Positions 5,943 through 18,424 of a stretch of 64,000 bases of DNA are shown here, one piece after another. Source of the stretch: Escherichia coli (GTDB taxonomy: Bacteria > Pseudomonadota > Gammaproteobacteria > Enterobacterales > Enterobacteriaceae). Numbering within the stretch: the first letter of the stretch is position 1; every line of letters begins with the position of its first letter. Made by a program: the position numbers and the translations under genes. The stretch lies in the NCBI RefSeq assembly GCF_003334405.1, contig NZ_QOWM01000010.1; one strand, 5' to 3'. The notes under the pieces were generated by a model that saw only the letters and a program-made list of their open reading frames with translations, was not told the DNA's origin and did no database searches.

Positions 5943-5968
5943 CGCCGGATGCGATGCTGCGCATCCGG
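5943..5968. terminator. REP-like GC-rich hairpin between convergent cnoX and fetB (probable bidirectional terminator)
   Basis: Inverted repeat gccggatgcg ... cgcatccggc read directly in the sequence between two convergent stop codons. Confidence 0.6.
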
Positions 5969-5975
5969 CATCGCA

Positions 5976-6755
5976 TCATTTCTTCTTCAATTGCGTCACC
6001 ACCAACTGGTGGCGCGAATTATAAAACTTACGATAGGTTAAATAGCAGGCAATAATGGTCGACAAGCTGGCGGTTGAGAGCAGCATAAAGGTCACCATAA
6101 TCTGATATTTAATCGCCTTCACCGGATCAATCCCGGCAAATATCAGCCCGGACATCATTCCTGGTAAACTCACTAAGCCAACCGTTTTTGCTGAATCGAC
6201 CGTCGGAATTAAAGCCGCGCGAATACTGTCGCGAATCAATATCGCTGAAGCCTGCTTCGGCGTCGCACCAAGACTCAGTTTCTCCTGAATCTGTTGCTGT
6301 TCGCTAATGACCCGTTGCCCTAAATTGTTGTAACACAACCCCACCGCTACCATGGCGTTACCGGCAATCATCCCGGCGATAGGGATCACCTGCATCGGGA
6401 TAAATTCAATCGACCCTGAGAGAATCAGCACCGCCAGGGTAATTCCCGCCCCGACCGTAATGGCAATAAACGATGAGATAAAAGCTTTAGCAATATATTT
6501 ACTGCGTTTTTGCGCGTTCCACGCCGCATTAAAGCAGATAAATAACACCATCAATAATGTCAGGCTGGCATCATCCACGCTGAAAATATACTTCAGCACA
6601 TAGCCGACAATAATCAGCTGAATTATCGCTCGCCCGACGCTCCAGAGAATATCTTTCTCCAGCGCCAGTTTTTCTTTATGGCTAATTAAGATTGCCACCA
6701 CCACCAGCATTAATGCCAGTGCTAATGATTCGTTAGTAATATTATGCGAGTTCAT
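5976..6755 (-). CDS. fetB: Iron-export ABC transporter permease, 259 aa
   Basis: ORF track 5976..6782; trimmed to the ATG at 6755 (MNSHNITNESLALA...). Polytopic membrane protein; its start overlaps the fetA stop. Confidence 0.9.
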   Translation of the reverse strand: MNSHNITNESLALALMLVVVAILISHKEKLALEKDILWSVGRAIIQLIIVGYVLKYIFSVDDASLTLLMVLFICFNAAWNAQKRSKYIAKAFISSFIAITVGAGITLAVLILSGSIEFIPMQVIPIAGMIAGNAMVAVGLCYNNLGQRVISEQQQIQEKLSLGATPKQASAILIRDSIRAALIPTVDSAKTVGLVSLPGMMSGLIFAGIDPVKAIKYQIMVTFMLLSTASLSTIIACYLTYRKFYNSRHQLVVTQLKKK

Positions 6756-10764: not shown

Positions 10765-11697
10765 TCAGCCCTTAAACACGTTATAGCCGAGTTGCTTAGC
10801 GACCGATGCCACCATTTTTTGACCGCGAACACTGTTGCCATCTTCGTCCAGCGGTGGTGAGAACGCGGCAATTCCCATCACTCCAGGGACGACCGCCAGA
10901 ATACCGCCACCTACACCGCTTTTGCCCGGTAAACCAACACGATACGCCCAGTCACCGGAGCGACCATACAGCCCTTCCATCATCATTTCGGCCAGAATGT
11001 ACGGCACGTTGTCGGCCTGAAGAACGCGTTTATGCGTCAACGGATTCACACCACCTGCCGCCAGCGTCGCGCCAAGCGTTGCCAGTTCAATAGTATTGAG
11101 GAGCGTGGAGCACTGACGGGTATACACGTCACAGGCTTCCATTGCATCACAATAGAGATATCCGGCGGAGTACAGCAGCCAGGCTATGGCCCGGTTATGG
11201 AAGTTGGTTGTTTGTTCCGACTGGTTGACTTCGTCAGAGAGCGCTACCTGCTCGCCAGCCAGTTGCTGTTGGATATGTAAAATTCGCTGCCAGCGTTGTT
11301 CAACATTTTCAGCGTTAATCAGGCTGGTGGTGGCAATAGCGCCAGCATTTACCAGTGGCGAAAGCGGTTTGCCGCCATGCAACTCTAAGGCGATAACTGA
11401 GTTAAAGGGCAATCCGGTCGGGTCAGCGCCAATTTTGTCCTGTACCGCCTGCGGGCCGACATCTTCTAACGCAAGGGCTAACGTACAGACTTTCGAGATG
11501 GATTCCAGTGCAAAGCGGTAATCACTGTCACCCGCACTATAGACGTTGCCATCGCAGGTCACGATAGCCACTGCCGCCAGTTGACCTGGTACATTCGCCA
11601 GAAAGGGAATGTAATCGGCATTTTGTCCGCCGTTAAGTGAGTGAAATTGGGTGTAAGCCTGATCCACTGCCTGCTGTAATTTGTTTGCATCTAACAT
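10765..11697 (-). CDS. glsA: Glutaminase 1, 310 aa
   Basis: ORF track 310 aa; serine-dependent beta-lactamase-like glutaminase fold; followed 2 nt later by ybaT (operon). Confidence 0.93.
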   Translation of the reverse strand: MLDANKLQQAVDQAYTQFHSLNGGQNADYIPFLANVPGQLAAVAIVTCDGNVYSAGDSDYRFALESISKVCTLALALEDVGPQAVQDKIGADPTGLPFNSVIALELHGGKPLSPLVNAGAIATTSLINAENVEQRWQRILHIQQQLAGEQVALSDEVNQSEQTTNFHNRAIAWLLYSAGYLYCDAMEACDVYTRQCSTLLNTIELATLGATLAAGGVNPLTHKRVLQADNVPYILAEMMMEGLYGRSGDWAYRVGLPGKSGVGGGILAVVPGVMGIAAFSPPLDEDGNSVRGQKMVASVAKQLGYNVFKG

Positions 11698-11887
11698 CTT
11701 TTGTTAACTCCTTTTTATAGATGCGGGAGGTAATTCCTCACCCCGGTGCCGATTTTCAGGCATCCTGATTTAACTTAGCACCCGCAACTTAACTACAGGA
11801 AAACAAAGAGATAAATGTCTAATCCTGATGCAAATCGAGCCGATTTTTTAATCTTTACGGACTTTTACCCGCCTGGTTTATTAATTT

Positions 11888-11918
11888 CTTGACCTTCCCC
11901 TTGCTGGAAGGTTTAACC
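11888..11918 (+). promoter_or_regulatory. MerR-type copA promoter: -35 TTGACC, CueR operator dyad in a long (about 19 bp) spacer, then the -10 region
   Basis: ttgACCTTCCcctt-GCTGGAAGGTttaacc read directly; perfect 7-bp inverted repeat ACCTTCC / GGAAGGT lying between -35- and -10-like hexamers about 45 bp upstream of the copA ATG. Confidence 0.8.
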
Positions 11919-11958
11919 TTTATCACAGCCAGTCAAAACTGTCTTAAAGGAGTGTTTT

Positions 11959-14463
11959 ATGTCACAAACTATCGACCTGACCCTGGACGGCCTGTCCTGC
12001 GGTCACTGCGTTAAACGCGTGAAAGAAAGTCTTGAACAGCGTCCGGATGTTGAGCAGGCGGATGTGTCTATCACTGAAGCGCACGTTACCGGGACTGCCA
12101 GTGCAGAACAGCTGATCGAAACCATCAAACAAGCGGGTTATGACGCATCTGTAAGCCACCCAAAGGCTAAACCGCTGGCGGAGTCATCAATCCCGTCGGA
12201 AGCACTGACAGCGGTTTCTGAGGCGCTTCCGGCAGCGACCGCCGATGACGATGACAGCCAGCAGTTGCTGCTGAGCGGCATGAGCTGCGCCAGCTGTGTC
12301 ACCCGCGTACAAAATGCGCTGCAAAGCGTACCGGGCGTCACTCAGGCACGGGTAAACCTGGCGGAGCGTACTGCGCTGGTGATGGGCAGTGCCTCCCCAC
12401 AAGATTTAGTGCAGGCGGTGGAAAAAGCGGGCTACGGCGCGGAAGCGATTGAAGATGACGCTAAACGCCGCGAGCGCCAGCAAGAAACCGCCGTCGCTAC
12501 GATGAAGCGCTTCCGCTGGCAGGCAATTGTCGCACTGGCGGTGGGTATCCCGGTGATGGTCTGGGGGATGATCGGCGATAACATGATGGTCACCGCTGAC
12601 AACCGCAGCCTGTGGTTGGTTATCGGCCTGATAACCCTGGCAGTGATGGTTTTCGCCGGCGGCCATTTTTACCGCAGTGCATGGAAAAGCCTGCTGAACG
12701 GTGCGGCGACGATGGATACGCTGGTGGCGCTGGGTACTGGCGTGGCGTGGCTCTATTCGATGAGCGTCAACCTGTGGCCGCAGTGGTTCCCGATGGAAGC
12801 GCGACATCTTTATTACGAAGCCAGCGCGATGATTATCGGTCTGATCAATCTCGGCCATATGCTGGAAGCGCGCGCACGCCAGCGTTCTTCTAAGGCGCTG
12901 GAAAAGTTACTCGATTTAACCCCGCCGACGGCACGCCTGGTTACTGACGAAGGTGAAAAAAGCGTGCCTCTGGCAGAAGTGCAGCCAGGTATGTTGCTGC
13001 GCCTGACGACCGGCGATCGCGTGCCGGTAGATGGCGAGATTACCCAGGGCGAAGCATGGCTGGATGAAGCGATGCTGACGGGCGAACCAATCCCGCAGCA
13101 AAAAGGCGAAGGCGATAGCGTCCATGCCGGGACAGTGGTACAGGACGGCAGTGTGCTGTTTCGTGCCAGTGCGGTTGGCAGCCATACTACGCTGTCACGA
13201 ATCATTCGCATGGTGCGCCAGGCCCAGAGCAGCAAGCCAGAAATCGGTCAGCTGGCGGATAAAATCTCAGCCGTATTTGTGCCGGTAGTGGTGGTTATTG
13301 CGCTTGTCAGTGCGGCAATCTGGTATTTCTTTGGTCCGGCACCGCAGATTGTCTATACCCTGGTGATTGCCACCACGGTACTGATTATTGCCTGTCCGTG
13401 TGCGCTGGGGCTGGCGACGCCGATGTCGATTATTTCCGGCGTCGGGCGGGCGGCTGAGTTTGGCGTGCTGGTGCGGGACGCTGACGCGCTGCAACGCGCC
13501 AGTACACTCGACACTGTAGTGTTCGATAAAACCGGGACGCTGACTGAAGGGAAGCCGCAGGTTGTCGCAGTGAAAACATTTGCTGATGTTGATGAAGCGC
13601 AGGCATTGCGTCTGGCGGCGGCACTGGAGCAAGGTTCCAGCCATCCGCTGGCACGAGCGATCCTCGATAAAGCAGGTGATATGCAGCTACCGCAGGTCAA
13701 CGGTTTCCGCACATTGCGCGGGCTGGGCGTGAGCGGTGAAGCTGAAGGTCATGCGTTATTGCTGGGCAATCAGGCGCTGTTAAATGAGCAACAGGTTGGT
13801 ACCAAAGCTATCGAAGCGGAGATTACTGCTCAGGCATCGCAAGGGGCAACGCCTGTGCTGCTGGCGGTTGACGGGAAAGCGGTAGCCCTGCTGGCAGTAC
13901 GCGATCCGTTGCGTAGTGATAGCGTGGCGGCGCTGCAACGCCTGCATAAAGCGGGATATCGTCTGGTGATGTTGACCGGGGATAACCCAACCACCGCCAA
14001 TGCGATCGCCAAAGAAGCAGGGATTGATGAGGTGATCGCCGGGGTGCTGCCGGACGGTAAAGCCGAAGCGATCAAACATCTGCAAAGTGAAGGACGTCAG
14101 GTGGCAATGGTGGGCGACGGCATTAACGACGCGCCAGCGCTGGCTCAGGCGGATGTCGGCATTGCGATGGGTGGCGGCAGTGATGTTGCCATTGAAACCG
14201 CGGCGATTACCCTGATGCGCCATAGCCTGATGGGCGTTGCGGATGCGCTCGCTATTTCCCGCGCAACGCTGCACAACATGAAGCAGAACCTGCTCGGTGC
14301 GTTTATCTACAACAGTATCGGTATTCCGGTCGCCGCCGGTATTTTGTGGCCGTTCACTGGAACACTGCTTAACCCGGTAGTTGCCGGAGCGGCAATGGCG
14401 CTCTCGTCGATTACCGTAGTGAGTAACGCCAACCGGTTGCTGCGGTTTAAACCGAAGGAATAA
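11959..14463 (+). CDS. copA: Cu(I)-exporting P1B-type ATPase, 834 aa
   Basis: ORF track 834 aa; two N-terminal metal-binding domains (CGHC, CASC), the CPC motif in [12 protein letters not shown], phosphorylation site DKTGTLT and the hinge [12 protein letters not shown]. Confidence 0.97.
12159..12170 (+). other. Programmed -1 ribosomal frameshift site in copA (slippery heptamer C CCA AAG, then a stop in the -1 frame)
   Basis: Heptamer cccaaag at 12159..12165 lies in-frame at codons 68-69; the -1 frame reads CCC AAA GGC TAA, predicting a 70-aa product that contains only the first metal-binding domain. Confidence 0.75.
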
Positions 14464-14469
14464 GTACAT

Positions 14470-14760
<291 letters not shown>

Positions 14761-14778
14761 TGAAGCGATGTTTTGGCC

Positions 14779-15120
14779 TTACGCGACCTTTTTTGCACGC
14801 TCTTCACGGCGTGCCAAATATTCAGCCACTGTTTCAATCCGTCCCAATTCTTCCTGGGTGCGCATGTTGTTTTCAACTTCCCAAAGATCAACCGCCGCCT
14901 GGAGGTTTAGCCAAAAATCGACTGTGGTATCAAAAACTTTCGCCAGACGAAATGCCATCTCAGTAGTGAGTTTACGATTGTTATTGATCAGTGCACTGAC
15001 GCTATTACGATGAACATGCAGCAACTCTGCTAACTCATTGATTTTCAAATCGAGCGGTTCCAGATATTCATAGAGAAGAATAGCTCCGGGTGTCGTCGGT
15101 TTTCTTGTTGCCTGTTTCAT
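14779..15120 (-). CDS. ybaQ: XRE-family helix-turn-helix protein, HigA-like antitoxin homolog, 113 aa
   Basis: ORF track 14779..15174; trimmed to the ATG at 15120 (MKQATRKPTTPGAILLYEYLEP...). HTH segment INELAELLHVHRNSVSALINN. No toxin-like ORF adjacent. Confidence 0.85.
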   Translation of the reverse strand: MKQATRKPTTPGAILLYEYLEPLDLKINELAELLHVHRNSVSALINNNRKLTTEMAFRLAKVFDTTVDFWLNLQAAVDLWEVENNMRTQEELGRIETVAEYLARREERAKKVA

Positions 15121-15257
15121 GGTTTTTAACTGTTGCTTCCTTGTGAATAGCGATGCAAGAACATACTGAATCATACAAACACATTAAACAAGTCTCCAAC
15201 TCCATTTGCGCCATCCCTCACCGCGCGCTAGCATGATATTTCACAAAGGGAGGTCGT

Positions 15258-16052
15258 ATGGATCTGTTGTACCGGGTAAAAACGCTTTGGGCCGCGCTGC
15301 GCGGTAATCATTACACCTGGCCTGCCATCGATATCACCCTCCCCGGCAATCGCCATTTTCATCTGATTGGCAGTATTCATATGGGTAGCCACGATATGGC
15401 TCCCCTGCCCACCCGTTTGCTCAAAAAGCTCAAAAACGCCGATGCGCTGATCGTCGAGGCGGATGTTTCCACCAGCGATACGCCTTTTGCTAATTTGCCT
15501 GCCTGCGAGGCGCTGGAAGAGCGCATTAGCGAGGAGCAACTCCAAAACCTGCAGCACATTAGCCAGGAGATGGGCATTTCTCCCTCACTCTTTTCTACCC
15601 AACCGCTGTGGCAAATCGCGATGGTTCTTCAGGCGACGCAGGCACAAAAACTGGGGCTGCGGGCAGAATACGGTATCGATTACCAGCTATTGCAGGCGGC
15701 GAAGCAACAACATAAACCCGTGATTGAACTGGAAGGGGCTGAAAACCAGATTGCCATGTTGCTCCAGCTCCCTGACAAAGGACTGGCGCTGCTGGACGAT
15801 ACGCTGACCCACTGGCATACCAACGCACGGTTGCTGCAACAAATGATGAGCTGGTGGCTGAATGCACCGCCGCAAAATAATGATATAACGCTGCCCAATA
15901 CGTTCAGTCAGTCGCTGTACGATGTGCTGATGCATCAGCGAAATCTCGCCTGGCGGGATAAATTACGCGCCATGCCGCCGGGGCGATATGTGGTCGCGGT
16001 CGGTGCACTACACCTGTATGGAGAAGGGAATTTGCCGCAAATGTTGCGCTAA
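15258..16052 (+). CDS. ybaP: TraB/GumN-family protein, 264 aa
   Basis: ORF track 264 aa; family assignment from memory of the K-12 annotation, not from an identifiable motif in the sequence. Confidence 0.88.
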   Translation: MDLLYRVKTLWAALRGNHYTWPAIDITLPGNRHFHLIGSIHMGSHDMAPLPTRLLKKLKNADALIVEADVSTSDTPFANLPACEALEERISEEQLQNLQHISQEMGISPSLFSTQPLWQIAMVLQATQAQKLGLRAEYGIDYQLLQAAKQQHKPVIELEGAENQIAMLLQLPDKGLALLDDTLTHWHTNARLLQQMMSWWLNAPPQNNDITLPNTFSQSLYDVLMHQRNLAWRDKLRAMPPGRYVVAVGALHLYGEGNLPQMLR

Positions 16053-16134
16053 AAAAATGGCCAATATCGCTATTGGCCCGTCAAAGAGGAATTTCATTTT
16101 TTTATTATTATGCCGTCACTTTAAGCGACGGTGT
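16051..16134 (-). ncRNA. chiX: Hfq-dependent small RNA ChiX (also called MicM/SroB)
   Basis: Reverse complement of 16051..16134 reads ACACCGTCGCTTAAAGTGACGGCATAATAATAAAAAAATGAAATTCCTCTTTGACGGGCCAATAGCGATATTGGCCATTTTTTT, matching my memory of ChiX, with an intrinsic terminator hairpin (GGCCAATAGCGATATTGGCC) and U-tract. Confidence 0.85.
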
Positions 16135-16240
16135 AACTCGATTGTCGCTCAATCTCACCATCCTGCCAATACTCTTAGGCAAGATGACTCTTTTTTTTGG
16201 ACCGCCATCAGGCGTATGCTTGCTTCGTTTTTTTGTTTAA

Positions 16241-16735
<495 letters not shown>

Positions 16736-16740
16736 GCATT

Positions 16741-16764
16741 GTGCCGGATGCAAACATCCGGCAC
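16741..16764. terminator. GC-rich hairpin between convergent ybaK and ushA (probable bidirectional terminator)
   Basis: gtgccggatg-caaa-catccggcac perfect inverted repeat directly after the ybaK stop and before the ushA stop. Confidence 0.65.
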
Positions 16765-16771
16765 TTTCGGA

Positions 16772-18424
16772 TTACTGCCAGCTCACCTCACCTTTCGGTT
16801 CATAAACACTCACATCCAGCGGCGAGCTTTTCTGGATATACGCTTTCAGCACTTCGGCATCAATAAAGCCGGTATTCACATAGCCCGGTTTGTTATCAAG
16901 GCGCGGATATCCATCACCGCCGGTGGCATTGAAGTTTAATGTCGCCATACGGTAAGTTTTCGCCGGATCGACCGGTTCGCCTTTGATTTTAAGGTCGTTC
17001 AGTTTGCCGTCTTTCGCCACAAAGCTAACGTTGGCAAATTGCGGGTAGGCACCTGAATCTGGCTTCATCTGCGCGACGGCGGTCAGGTAATCAATCACCT
17101 CTTTACCGGTCATGTCGGCATACACCACCACATTGCCGAATGGCTGCACTTTCAGCACGTTTTTATAGCTGATATCGCCTGCTTCGATAGAATCACGAAT
17201 TCCGCCTCCGCTCATCACCGCAAAGTCGGCACCAGTGCGATCCATTTGGGCTGCCAGAATCAACCGCCCCATATTGGTCTGTACAAAACGCACTTTGTCA
17301 CGATCGCCTTCCAGACGACCATTGGTTTCGCCTATTTTCACTTCCAGCTGCGCTTTGCCTTTGTTCTGGAACGGTGATAACAGCGAGATCATTTGCTGGT
17401 TTTCAGCGATTTCAGGAGTGTAAAGCACGCGCTCGCTTTTCCCGTCTTCCCAGGTCACTTTCTTCTTCAGGTTCACCGGAATCAGCTGGTAGTTAACCAT
17501 TTTCATTTCGCCATTACGAAACTCAAAATCAGCCCGTCCCACGTATTTGCCCCACTCATGCGCCTGCACAATCCAGATGCCGTTTTGTTGATCTGGTTTG
17601 CATGGCGTACCCGGCACGTAATCGACCTGTTTTTTGTTTTCTGCCGCCATGCAGACCGGATCTTGCGAGTGACCACCGACGATCATCGCCAGCGATCCGG
17701 CAGGCAGCGCGCGTGCCATCTCCACATCGCCCGGTGCGTTAGAGCCGTGCTCACCATTATCGTAATGCCCCATATGGGTCGCCGCGATAATAATGTCTGG
17801 CTTTTCTGTCTGTTGCAGCTCCTGAATCACCAGCTTCGCTTCATCGGCGGGCTTACGAAATTCGATATCAGTGAAGTATTCCGGGTTACCAATTTTTGCT
17901 GTGTCATCGGTTGTCAGCCCAATAACGGCAATTTTCAGATCCTGACGCTTAAACAGCGCCCACGGTTTAAACAGGCGCTCGCCAGTACTTTTCTGGTAGA
18001 TATTCGCGGAAAGCAACGGGAACTTGGCCCACTTTTCCTGCTGGCGTAATACGGTGAGCGGATTATCAAATTCATGATTACCGATCGCCATCGCGTCATA
18101 GCCCACCAGATTCATACCGCGAAAATCAGGTTCGGCATCCTGTAAGTCAGACTCGGGCACGCCAGTGTTAATGTCGCCACCGGAAAGTAGCAGCACGCTA
18201 CCGCCTTCAGCCGCAACCTCTTTGCGGATACCATCCACCAGCGTTTTTTGCGCCGCCAGACCATATTCGCCACATTCATTGCGCCAAAAATGCCCATGAT
18301 GATCATTGGTATGCAGAACTGTAATTTTGTAGGTTTTATCCTGCTCATACGCCAGAGCAGTTTCACTCGCCAGTGTAAATGTGGTTAACAGCGCTAACGC
18401 CACGCCCCGCTGCAATAATTTCAT
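16772..18424 (-). CDS. ushA: Periplasmic UDP-sugar hydrolase / 5'-nucleotidase, 550 aa
   Basis: ORF track 550 aa; signal peptide and calcineurin-like metallophosphoesterase motifs (DHHGH, GNHEFD). Confidence 0.95.
   Translation of the reverse strand: MKLLQRGVALALLTTFTLASETALAYEQDKTYKITVLHTNDHHGHFWRNECGEYGLAAQKTLVDGIRKEVAAEGGSVLLLSGGDINTGVPESDLQDAEPDFRGMNLVGYDAMAIGNHEFDNPLTVLRQQEKWAKFPLLSANIYQKSTGERLFKPWALFKRQDLKIAVIGLTTDDTAKIGNPEYFTDIEFRKPADEAKLVIQELQQTEKPDIIIAATHMGHYDNGEHGSNAPGDVEMARALPAGSLAMIVGGHSQDPVCMAAENKKQVDYVPGTPCKPDQQNGIWIVQAHEWGKYVGRADFEFRNGEMKMVNYQLIPVNLKKKVTWEDGKSERVLYTPEIAENQQMISLLSPFQNKGKAQLEVKIGETNGRLEGDRDKVRFVQTNMGRLILAAQMDRTGADFAVMSGGGIRDSIEAGDISYKNVLKVQPFGNVVVYADMTGKEVIDYLTAVAQMKPDSGAYPQFANVSFVAKDGKLNDLKIKGEPVDPAKTYRMATLNFNATGGDGYPRLDNKPGYVNTGFIDAEVLKAYIQKSSPLDVSVYEPKGEVSWQ

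Follow-up and report, generated by a model that had tools for sequence, protein, structure and literature searches.

The Escherichia coli core gene ybaP encodes a TraB/PrgY/GumN-family protein, probably a cytoplasmic hydrolase with a proposed ancestry in a copper-efflux locus

The gene ybaP is one of the remaining core genes of Escherichia coli without an assigned function, and its product belongs to a protein family with almost no characterized bacterial members besides the enterococcal pheromone-shutdown proteins. We analyzed this gene in a stretch of E. coli DNA of 64,000 nucleotides (contig NZ_QOWM01000010.1 of assembly GCF_003334405.1; hereafter the window), in which it occupies positions 15258..16052 of the plus strand. 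Our best overall explanation is that YbaP is probably a soluble, most likely cytoplasmic single-domain enzyme with the TIKI/TraB/PrgY/GumN fold, which would stem from a gene lineage of the cueR-copA locus. An earlier note on this DNA, made from the sequence alone, had stated that ybaP has no assigned role in E. coli. This statement agrees with the literature, where the gene is described with the words "function is unknown" (PMC10888264) and its product as a "hypothetical protein" (PMC7933661).

Family assignment, fold and conserved residues

When YbaP was compared with the Pfam models, we obtained a match to PF01963 (TraB_PrgY_gumN) with E = 1.1e-43 and 150.4 bits, which covered YbaP residues 30-264 and positions 9-255 of the 263 model positions. 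The same domain was carried by every YbaP homologue found. The earlier note had assigned YbaP to the TraB/PrgY/GumN family and had named a profile search that fails to place the protein there as the observation that should overturn the assignment. This search was carried out and placed YbaP in PF01963, and both the predicted fold and the conserved residues agree with the assignment, which is already known and identical to the RefSeq product name. The NCBIfam search returned no model matching YbaP. A sequence search of the PDB with YbaP alone gave no significant match; when a profile built from 89 sequences was used instead, the only matches were to de novo designed helical proteins and were spurious.

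Searching 1.84 billion representative proteins, we retrieved 4448 relatives of YbaP at E <= 0.001, and residue conservation was quantified in 89 full-length representatives that share 25-48% identity with YbaP. Here, we found that E67, E159, W200, R228, G249, and H252 (YbaP numbering) were invariant and that G38, H41, and N229 were conserved in at least 90% of the sequences. YbaP thus carries two GxxH motifs (G38-S-I-H41 and G249-A-L-H252), the glutamates E67 and E159, and the pair R228-N229. A motif set consisting of two GxxH motifs, Glu residues, and a basic residue has been described for the TIKI superfamily in the RRSP structure paper (PMC6254334), and the alignment of the 89 representatives reveals the corresponding 2His/2Glu + Arg constellation in YbaP. 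The distance between H41 and E67 is 26 residues and that between R228 and H252 is 24 residues. These spacings are similar to those between H3902 and E3930 and between R4001 and H4030 in RRSP (PMC6254334), which suggests that the two sets of residues correspond to each other. In one relative with 37% identity (P0145), the first GxxH motif is replaced by ANLP and H41 is thereby lost; this protein may have become inactive.

The AlphaFold2 (AF2) model of YbaP shows a single globular domain of 264 amino acids with a predicted local distance difference test score (pLDDT) of 94.2 and a predicted template modeling score (pTM) of 0.89. In this model, the protein adopts the TIKI/ChaN/Ere-type fold, an alpha/beta architecture in which helices flank a central parallel beta-sheet. 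Structure prediction and active-site comparison had been proposed in the earlier note as ways to check the assignment, and both speak for it, as the model has the TIKI/ChaN/Ere-type fold and the His, Glu, and Arg residues of the family are present. Taken together, we hold the family, fold, and residue assignments with high confidence.

Identity and conservation of ybaP

The list of open reading frames (ORFs) gives ybaP as a frame of 264 codons with an ATG start. An in-frame TGA was read at 15234-15236, 24 nt 5' of the start codon, and therefore the N-terminus cannot be extended. A Shine-Dalgarno sequence (GGGAGG; 15248..15253, plus strand) was read from the sequence 4 nt 5' of the ATG, and its GGA is invariant across the upstream alignment of 18 loci. 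The 2.4-kb region around the gene is 100% identical to that of E. coli K-12 MG1655, in which this coding sequence is annotated as ybaP, "TraB/GumN family protein" (WP_000365173.1). We found the gene in 5423 of 5426 complete E. coli genomes. The description of ybaP as part of a core locus therefore holds, and the ORF is real at its exact coordinates.

Pairwise comparison with an Escherichia sp., Citrobacter, Salmonella, Klebsiella, Kluyvera, Enterobacter, and Franconibacter yielded ratios of non-synonymous to synonymous substitution rates (dN/dS) of 0.055-0.20, with dS being saturated in the distant genome pairs. From these values it follows that ybaP is a real coding gene under purifying selection. 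In the same genome pairs, dN of ybaP was 2-4 times that of copA, ybaK, and ushA. The amino acid identity of YbaP between genera of the Enterobacteriaceae is 61-83%, and that of CopA, YbaK, and UshA of the same loci is 82-95%. The ybaP deletion mutant of the Keio collection is among the listed blue-light-hypersensitive mutants and among the curli/Congo-red mutants, in both cases as a weak hit.

Cellular location

Applying N-terminal hydrophobicity rules, we detected neither a signal peptide nor a hydrophobic N-terminal segment in E. coli YbaP. By the same rules, 65 of the 89 representatives have an N-terminus that resembles a Sec signal peptide, and many of the others were borderline. Hydrophobicity at the N-terminus amounts to 0.6-1.0, whereas most relatives reach values of about 2 or more. 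Within the clade that is at least 36% identical to YbaP, no signal-peptide-like N-terminus was recognized except in a borderline protein of Plesiomonas. This protein (P0130; MKKLLTRLALWLGLLSPLAQA/YP...) keeps a signal-peptide-like sequence that aligns to YbaP residues 1-20, and residues 2-14 of YbaP are modeled by AF2 as a helix. YbaP is most likely soluble and cytoplasmic, and the comparison suggests that it is an offshoot of a mainly exported family and that its own N-terminus is a degenerate signal peptide. It likewise suggests that the signal peptide was lost in the sampled Enterobacterales other than Plesiomonas.

Linkage to the copA/cueR copper locus

The presumed ancestral upstream neighbor of ybaP is copA, which encodes a Cu(I)-exporting P-type ATPase and is located at 11959..14463 on the plus strand of the window (ORF, annotation, synteny in 79 of 80 loci). 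The synteny scan covered one genome per species with an alignment of 12 sequences as query, and it returned 80 loci, all from Enterobacteriaceae. In 76 of them, copA is positioned immediately upstream of ybaP on the same strand and ybaQ is missing. The gap between the copA stop and the ybaP start has a median length of about 100 nt. A gap of 50-99 nt was measured in 39 of 78 loci, and larger insertions are present in 13.

Outside the Enterobacteriaceae, the homologue lies within a copper locus in five of seven long-contig contexts. In Edwardsiella tarda (locus L083), we found the order cueR<>copA-ybaP, in which the sign <> denotes divergent genes. The order is cueR<>copA-DUF411(copG)-traB in Plesiomonas (L086) and cueR<>copA-x-DUF411-traB in Enterovibrio coralii (L089), where copA was located by tblastn. 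In Vibrio maritimus (L091), copA and the DUF411 gene are followed by three genes, traB, a small gene, and a gene of the MerR family. Locus L096 comprises qmcA, a gene of 160 amino acids in the position that ybbJ/nfeD takes in L083, cueR<>copA, a kinase-like gene, and traB. In an uncultured relative (L084/L085), cueR is the divergent neighbor of ybaP itself (cueR<>ybaP-ybaK). All four MerR-family neighbors tested (L083, L084, L086, L089) exceeded the CueR equivalog cutoff. A gene of 924 amino acids beside the homologue of L088 was considered as a CopA candidate and rejected, as it is not a CopA. The DUF411 (CopG-type) gene is found 3' of copA at 4426-4869 in L086, at 4510-4944 in L089, and at 2754-3203 in L091. 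It sits between copA and the exported TraB/GumN gene in Plesiomonas and Enterovibrio, is separated from the TraB/GumN gene by three opposite-strand genes in Vibrio, and is absent at this site in Enterobacteriaceae.

An expression study from the literature independently supports the link to copper by experiment. RNA sequencing of Erwinia amylovora indicated that the TraB/GumN gene downstream of copA is induced by copper with log2 fold changes of 2.5-3.6 (PMC12542790). This gene is one of only four that were copper-regulated in both strains and under all treatments, and three of these four were induced, namely copA, cueO, and the TraB/GumN gene (PMC12542790). Our literature searches on ybaP or TraB-family proteins in connection with copper retrieved this paper alone.

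The copA promoter of the window carries a CueR box (CCTTCC-N7-GGAAGG; 11893..11911, plus strand), which was detected by pattern scan, and the cueR-ybaP intergenic region of L084 contained no such box. In the window, ybaP lacks the features of a member of the CueR regulon or of a copA operon; it has no CueR box, and repetitive extragenic palindromic (REP) elements and the antisense gene ybaQ intervene between it and copA.

Upstream region of ybaP

An alignment of upstream regions revealed a promoter-like element at 15206..15234 on the plus strand (TTGCGC-17 nt-TAGCAT, including GCGCTAGCATG), with the -35 hexamer at 15206-15211 and the -10 hexamer at 15229-15234. Its consensus, TTGCRC-17 nt-TAGCAT, is conserved 5' of ybaP in E. 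coli and in 16 other Enterobacteriaceae loci, and the 11-nt block GCGCTAGCATG is invariant just 5' of the gene in the 17 aligned loci. The consensus promoter scan missed the element because of its weak -35 hexamer, and it was recovered solely via the cross-genus alignment. The element appears to be ybaP's own promoter, from which a transcription start near 15241-15243 is predicted. The conservation of GCGCTAGCATG exceeds the need of a -10 hexamer alone, and within 15206-15236 the block holds the palindrome GCTAGC; it could be the binding site of a regulator.

In Enterobacter and Lelliottia (L061, L076, and similar loci, about 5945-6001), the entire spacer between copA and ybaP is 50-51 nt long, with 51 nt in Enterobacter cloacae. 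Here, the -35-like hexamer TTGAAC of ybaP contains the copA stop codon, no terminator separates the two genes, and read-through from copA into ybaP is likely. The spacer can also be folded into a hairpin (ACGCGCU...AGCGCGU) that takes in the Shine-Dalgarno sequence of ybaP.

Between copA and ybaP, the window contains ybaQ, a HigA-family antitoxin gene with a helix-turn-helix (HTH) motif (14779..15120, minus strand; RefSeq annotation), which scored 102.8 bits against the HigA model TIGR02607 (cutoff 47.7). Two REP-type palindromic elements are found between copA and ybaQ (14575-14652 and 14676-14753, both strands) and match Rfam naRNA4 (RF02564) with 89.3 and 79.9 bits. The ybaQ frame called mechanically comprises 131 amino acids from an upstream ATG (15121-15174), the RefSeq form has 113 amino acids and starts at 15120, and the HigA profile aligns with the longer form from residue 24 onward.

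We found ybaQ only in Escherichia loci; none of the 76 non-Escherichia loci has it at this position. Three states of the site occur within E. coli. The K-12 type has the REP elements and an orphan ybaQ (ybaQ was found in 4834 genomes overall), the second state carries a RelE/ParE-family toxin gene between ybaQ and ybaP (1266 genomes; L093, 1500-2311), and the third is an empty site with neither gene (about 589 genomes; L094, 2817-3061), as seen in strain 06-00048. The last 80 nt or so before ybaP, including the promoter-like element, are common to all three. The window has no toxin gene beside ybaQ (14779-15257), and the K-12 state resembles a clean deletion of the toxin ORF. Since the three states share the sequence next to ybaP, ybaQ is best read as the remnant of a higBA-type cassette, inserted in the Escherichia lineage between copA and ybaP upstream of the ybaP promoter, and not as a partner of YbaP. 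The earlier note had placed ybaP between an orphan HigA-like regulator and ChiX. Both neighbors were recovered (TIGR02607, RF00368), but the orphan condition of ybaQ is confined to this strain type, and a toxin gene is adjacent to it in the 1266 genomes of the second state. Because ybaQ is missing from the site in other genera and lies beside a toxin gene in other E. coli genomes, the adjacency is uninformative on the function of ybaP, and a decayed toxin-antitoxin cassette is unsuitable for guilt-by-association. A search for inverted repeats in the ybaQ-ybaP intergenic region returned none, and no obvious operator was seen there. YbaQ may nevertheless exert regulatory cross-talk onto the nearby ybaP promoter.

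Downstream region of ybaP

Downstream of ybaP, we identified the small RNA gene chiX (sroB) in convergent orientation (16051..16134, minus strand). It matched Rfam RF00368 over model positions 1-83 of 83 with 82.1 bits (gathering score 44). The terminator hairpin of chiX (16078-16059, minus strand) is followed by a U-tail that overlaps the ybaP stop codon at 16050-16052. On the plus strand, this hairpin has no following T-run, and ybaP transcripts may continue toward ybaK, antisense to chiX. An antisense chiX is located just 3' of ybaP in 78 of the 80 loci; it was undetected in two Franconibacter loci (L072, L080).

The conserved downstream neighbor is ybaK, which encodes a Cys-tRNA(Pro) deacylase (16256..16735, plus strand; NF007951, 329.9 bits) and is syntenic in 80 of 80 loci. 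In the uncultured relative (L085, 1218-1221) and in Rosenbergiella (L087, 882-885), the end of ybaP and the beginning of ybaK share 4 nt, and the two genes have no chiX between them. This overlap suggests a translationally coupled ybaP-ybaK operon in these two organisms.

Proposed function and alternative explanations

Judged by analogy with characterized superfamily members, YbaP is probably an active cytoplasmic hydrolase. As in the erythromycin esterases, RRSP, and Tiki (PMC6254334, PMC12329661), the His41-Glu67 pair would activate water, possibly assisted by a metal, and His252, Arg228, and Glu159 would position and polarize a carbonyl substrate. In this way, YbaP would cleave an amide or an ester linkage of a peptide, a protein, or a small molecule of the cytoplasm. 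As to a metal, Tiki requires one and RRSP and the Ere enzymes do not (PMC6254334, PMC12329661). The gene would descend from a gammaproteobacterial lineage seated in the cueR-copA(-copG) copper-efflux locus. The product of this lineage would be exported in Vibrionaceae and Plesiomonas, and its signal peptide would then have been lost in the other sampled Enterobacterales. In Escherichia, the higBA-type cassette would have come to lie between copA and ybaP, leaving ybaQ as its remnant. From this, the likeliest physiological context of YbaP would be an accessory role in copper or envelope stress, and this is the weakest step of the proposal.

A number of observations weigh against parts of this explanation. 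Activity, metal dependence, and substrate class of YbaP are all deduced by analogy, and some proteins with the TIKI fold are not hydrolases; ChaN binds haem, and the PMT C1/C2 domains lack the catalytic motif (PMC6254334). The cytoplasmic location depends on signal-peptide calls made by N-terminal hydrophobicity rules. Against a role in copper stress stands the scan of positions 11000-17000 for CueR boxes, which found a single box, the one at the copA promoter, and none before ybaP. The relatives of L088 and L095 have no link to a copper locus, a strong GC-rich hairpin is present 3' of copA in many genera, and ybaP appears to have its own promoter-like element. Moreover, ybaK and ushA are located in the same syntenic block, and the link to copper may represent inherited gene order. 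The gap between copA and ybaP is a hot spot of insertion, which has received the toxin-antitoxin cassette in E. coli, the TRIP1e repeat in some E. coli (PMC10888264), and scwA in Salmonella Typhimurium, an acquired gene that is transcribed independently of both flanking genes (PMC7933661). Finally, in the literature searched, neither a copper phenotype nor copper induction has been reported for E. coli ybaP. For these reasons, we regard a copper-related role of ybaP as doubtful. A more far-reaching and likewise doubtful proposal is that the YbaP lineage of TIKI-fold hydrolases forms an unrecognized accessory component of the gammaproteobacterial CueR/CopA copper-stress response, which would be periplasmic and paired with CopG (DUF411) in Vibrionaceae and Plesiomonas, moved to the cytoplasm through signal-peptide loss in the other Enterobacterales, and secondarily uncoupled from copA by insertions in Escherichia and Salmonella.

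The closest competitor keeps the enzyme and drops the copper. YbaP could be an active cytoplasmic TIKI-fold hydrolase with a housekeeping function, for which the adjacency to copA is nothing but inherited order, and we consider this a sizeable possibility, although not the leading one. The absence of any known copper role of ybaK and ushA in the syntenic block is in line with it, and so are the hairpin 3' of copA in many genera together with the separate conserved promoter-like element of ybaP, the tolerance of independent copA-ybaP insertions in E. coli and Salmonella, the lack of a CueR box at ybaP, and the position of L088 and L095 outside copper loci. However, the copper linkage has outlasted rearrangements over a long evolutionary distance (cueR<>copA-copG-traB; copA-copG...traB...merR; cueR<>ybaP-ybaK), the Erwinia gene is induced by copper (PMC12542790), and the ybaP -35 element of Enterobacter contains the copA stop, with no terminator in between. 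If one gives up catalysis as well, YbaP might be a binder of a metal, haem, or a peptide that retains the TIKI fold in the manner of ChaN. The examples of ChaN and of PMT C1/C2 illustrate that the fold is not always enzymatic, and the non-synonymous rate of YbaP is 2-4 times that of the flanking genes. This explanation is improbable, as the full His/Glu/Arg set of the active members is invariant or nearly so down to 25% identity, which is unexpected for a structural or binding role.

The two neighboring genes provide the remaining candidates. Jointly with YbaK, YbaP might act as an esterase on an ester of the aminoacyl- or peptidyl-tRNA type or on another product of translational quality control. 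The constant position of ybaK 3' of ybaP on the same strand in all 80 Enterobacteriaceae loci, the 4-nt overlap in Rosenbergiella and in the uncultured relative, the occurrence of true esterases in the superfamily (erythromycin esterases; PMC6254334), and the co-induction of ybaK with the ybaP homologue in Erwinia (PMC12542790) fit this idea. Most Enterobacteriaceae, however, have a spacer of about 200 nt between ybaP and ybaK, in which the convergent chiX and its terminator are located, Edwardsiella has a permease gene at this place, and exported homologues of the Vibrio type would be unable to act on tRNA, so that we judge such a partnership to be quite improbable. Still further down ranks a functional partnership with YbaQ, in which YbaP would be its toxin or its regulatory target. 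The two genes are divergent neighbors in the window and share an intergenic region of 137 bp, but the 76 non-Escherichia loci and some 589 E. coli genomes have no ybaQ at the site, and the true partner of ybaQ is the RelE/ParE-family toxin gene located between ybaQ and ybaP in 1266 genomes. In addition, PADLOC gave no defense-system match for YbaP and just sub-threshold HTH hits for YbaQ, and the intergenic region is devoid of inverted repeats. We consider this partnership extremely improbable, and YbaP as the toxin of YbaQ is effectively refuted by the distribution data.

The cytoplasmic hydrolase of copper-locus ancestry thus remains our preferred reading. The persistent placement in the cueR-copA(-copG) locus, the induction of the Erwinia gene by copper, and what appears to be a change of compartment provide a testable starting point for functional work. 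Our additions to the knowledge on this gene are modest and concern three points, namely its proposed descent from a copper locus, signal-peptide loss, and the derivation of ybaQ from a toxin-antitoxin cassette; of these, the literature searched touches upon the first alone, with one sentence of the Erwinia paper (PMC12542790).

Comparison with known systems

YbaP resembles the bacterial TraB/GumN family (PF01963) in its full-length domain, both GxxH motifs, the invariant Glu, and the Arg-Asn pair. Its size is typical of the family (about 260-290 amino acids), and its predicted fold matches that of the only solved member. An N-terminal signal peptide is present in most of the bacterial relatives found but lacking in YbaP and in most of its Enterobacterales clade. 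The same Pfam domain is found in PrgY (pCF10) and TraB (pAD1) of Enterococcus faecalis, which are regarded as peptidases that break down a small peptide or render it inactive (PMC7117660). PrgY is plasmid-encoded and membrane-localized and is thought to act extracellularly on cCF10 (PMC7117660). In contrast, ybaP is a chromosomal core gene without a peptide-pheromone context, and its product has no hydrophobic N-terminal segment. The features of the pheromone-shutdown type represented by PrgY and TraB are lacking in YbaP, and the analogy with these proteins drawn in the earlier note found no support, since YbaP is a single globular domain with neither a signal peptide nor a hydrophobic N-terminus. 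It is disfavored because PrgY is localized at the membrane and thought to work outside the cell, whereas YbaP is predicted to be cytoplasmic.

The metazoan TIKI1/2 proteins (TRABD2A/B), which are Wnt-specific metalloproteases, belong to the same superfamily and have the His/Glu catalytic constellation in common with YbaP. The best-characterized activity of the PF01963 type is that of a metal-dependent amino-terminal protease (PMC12329661, PMC6254334). The TIKI proteins differ from YbaP in being anchored at the cell surface, with secreted Wnt as their substrate. Erythromycin esterase/Bcr135-136, ChaN, HopBA1, and RRSP showed no sequence similarity to YbaP in the PDB sequence and profile searches, and the Ere, ChaN, HopBA1, and RRSP proteins have other accessory domains and other substrates (macrolide ester, haem, Ras).

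By name and position, ybaP also resembles EAMY_RS22290 of Erwinia amylovora, a TraB/GumN gene downstream of copA that shares its RefSeq product name. The two differ in that the copA-ybaP junction of E. coli K-12 is broken by the REP elements and ybaQ. Copper induces the Erwinia gene along with copA and cueO (PMC12542790), and its arrangement corresponds to the ancestral one that we propose for ybaP.

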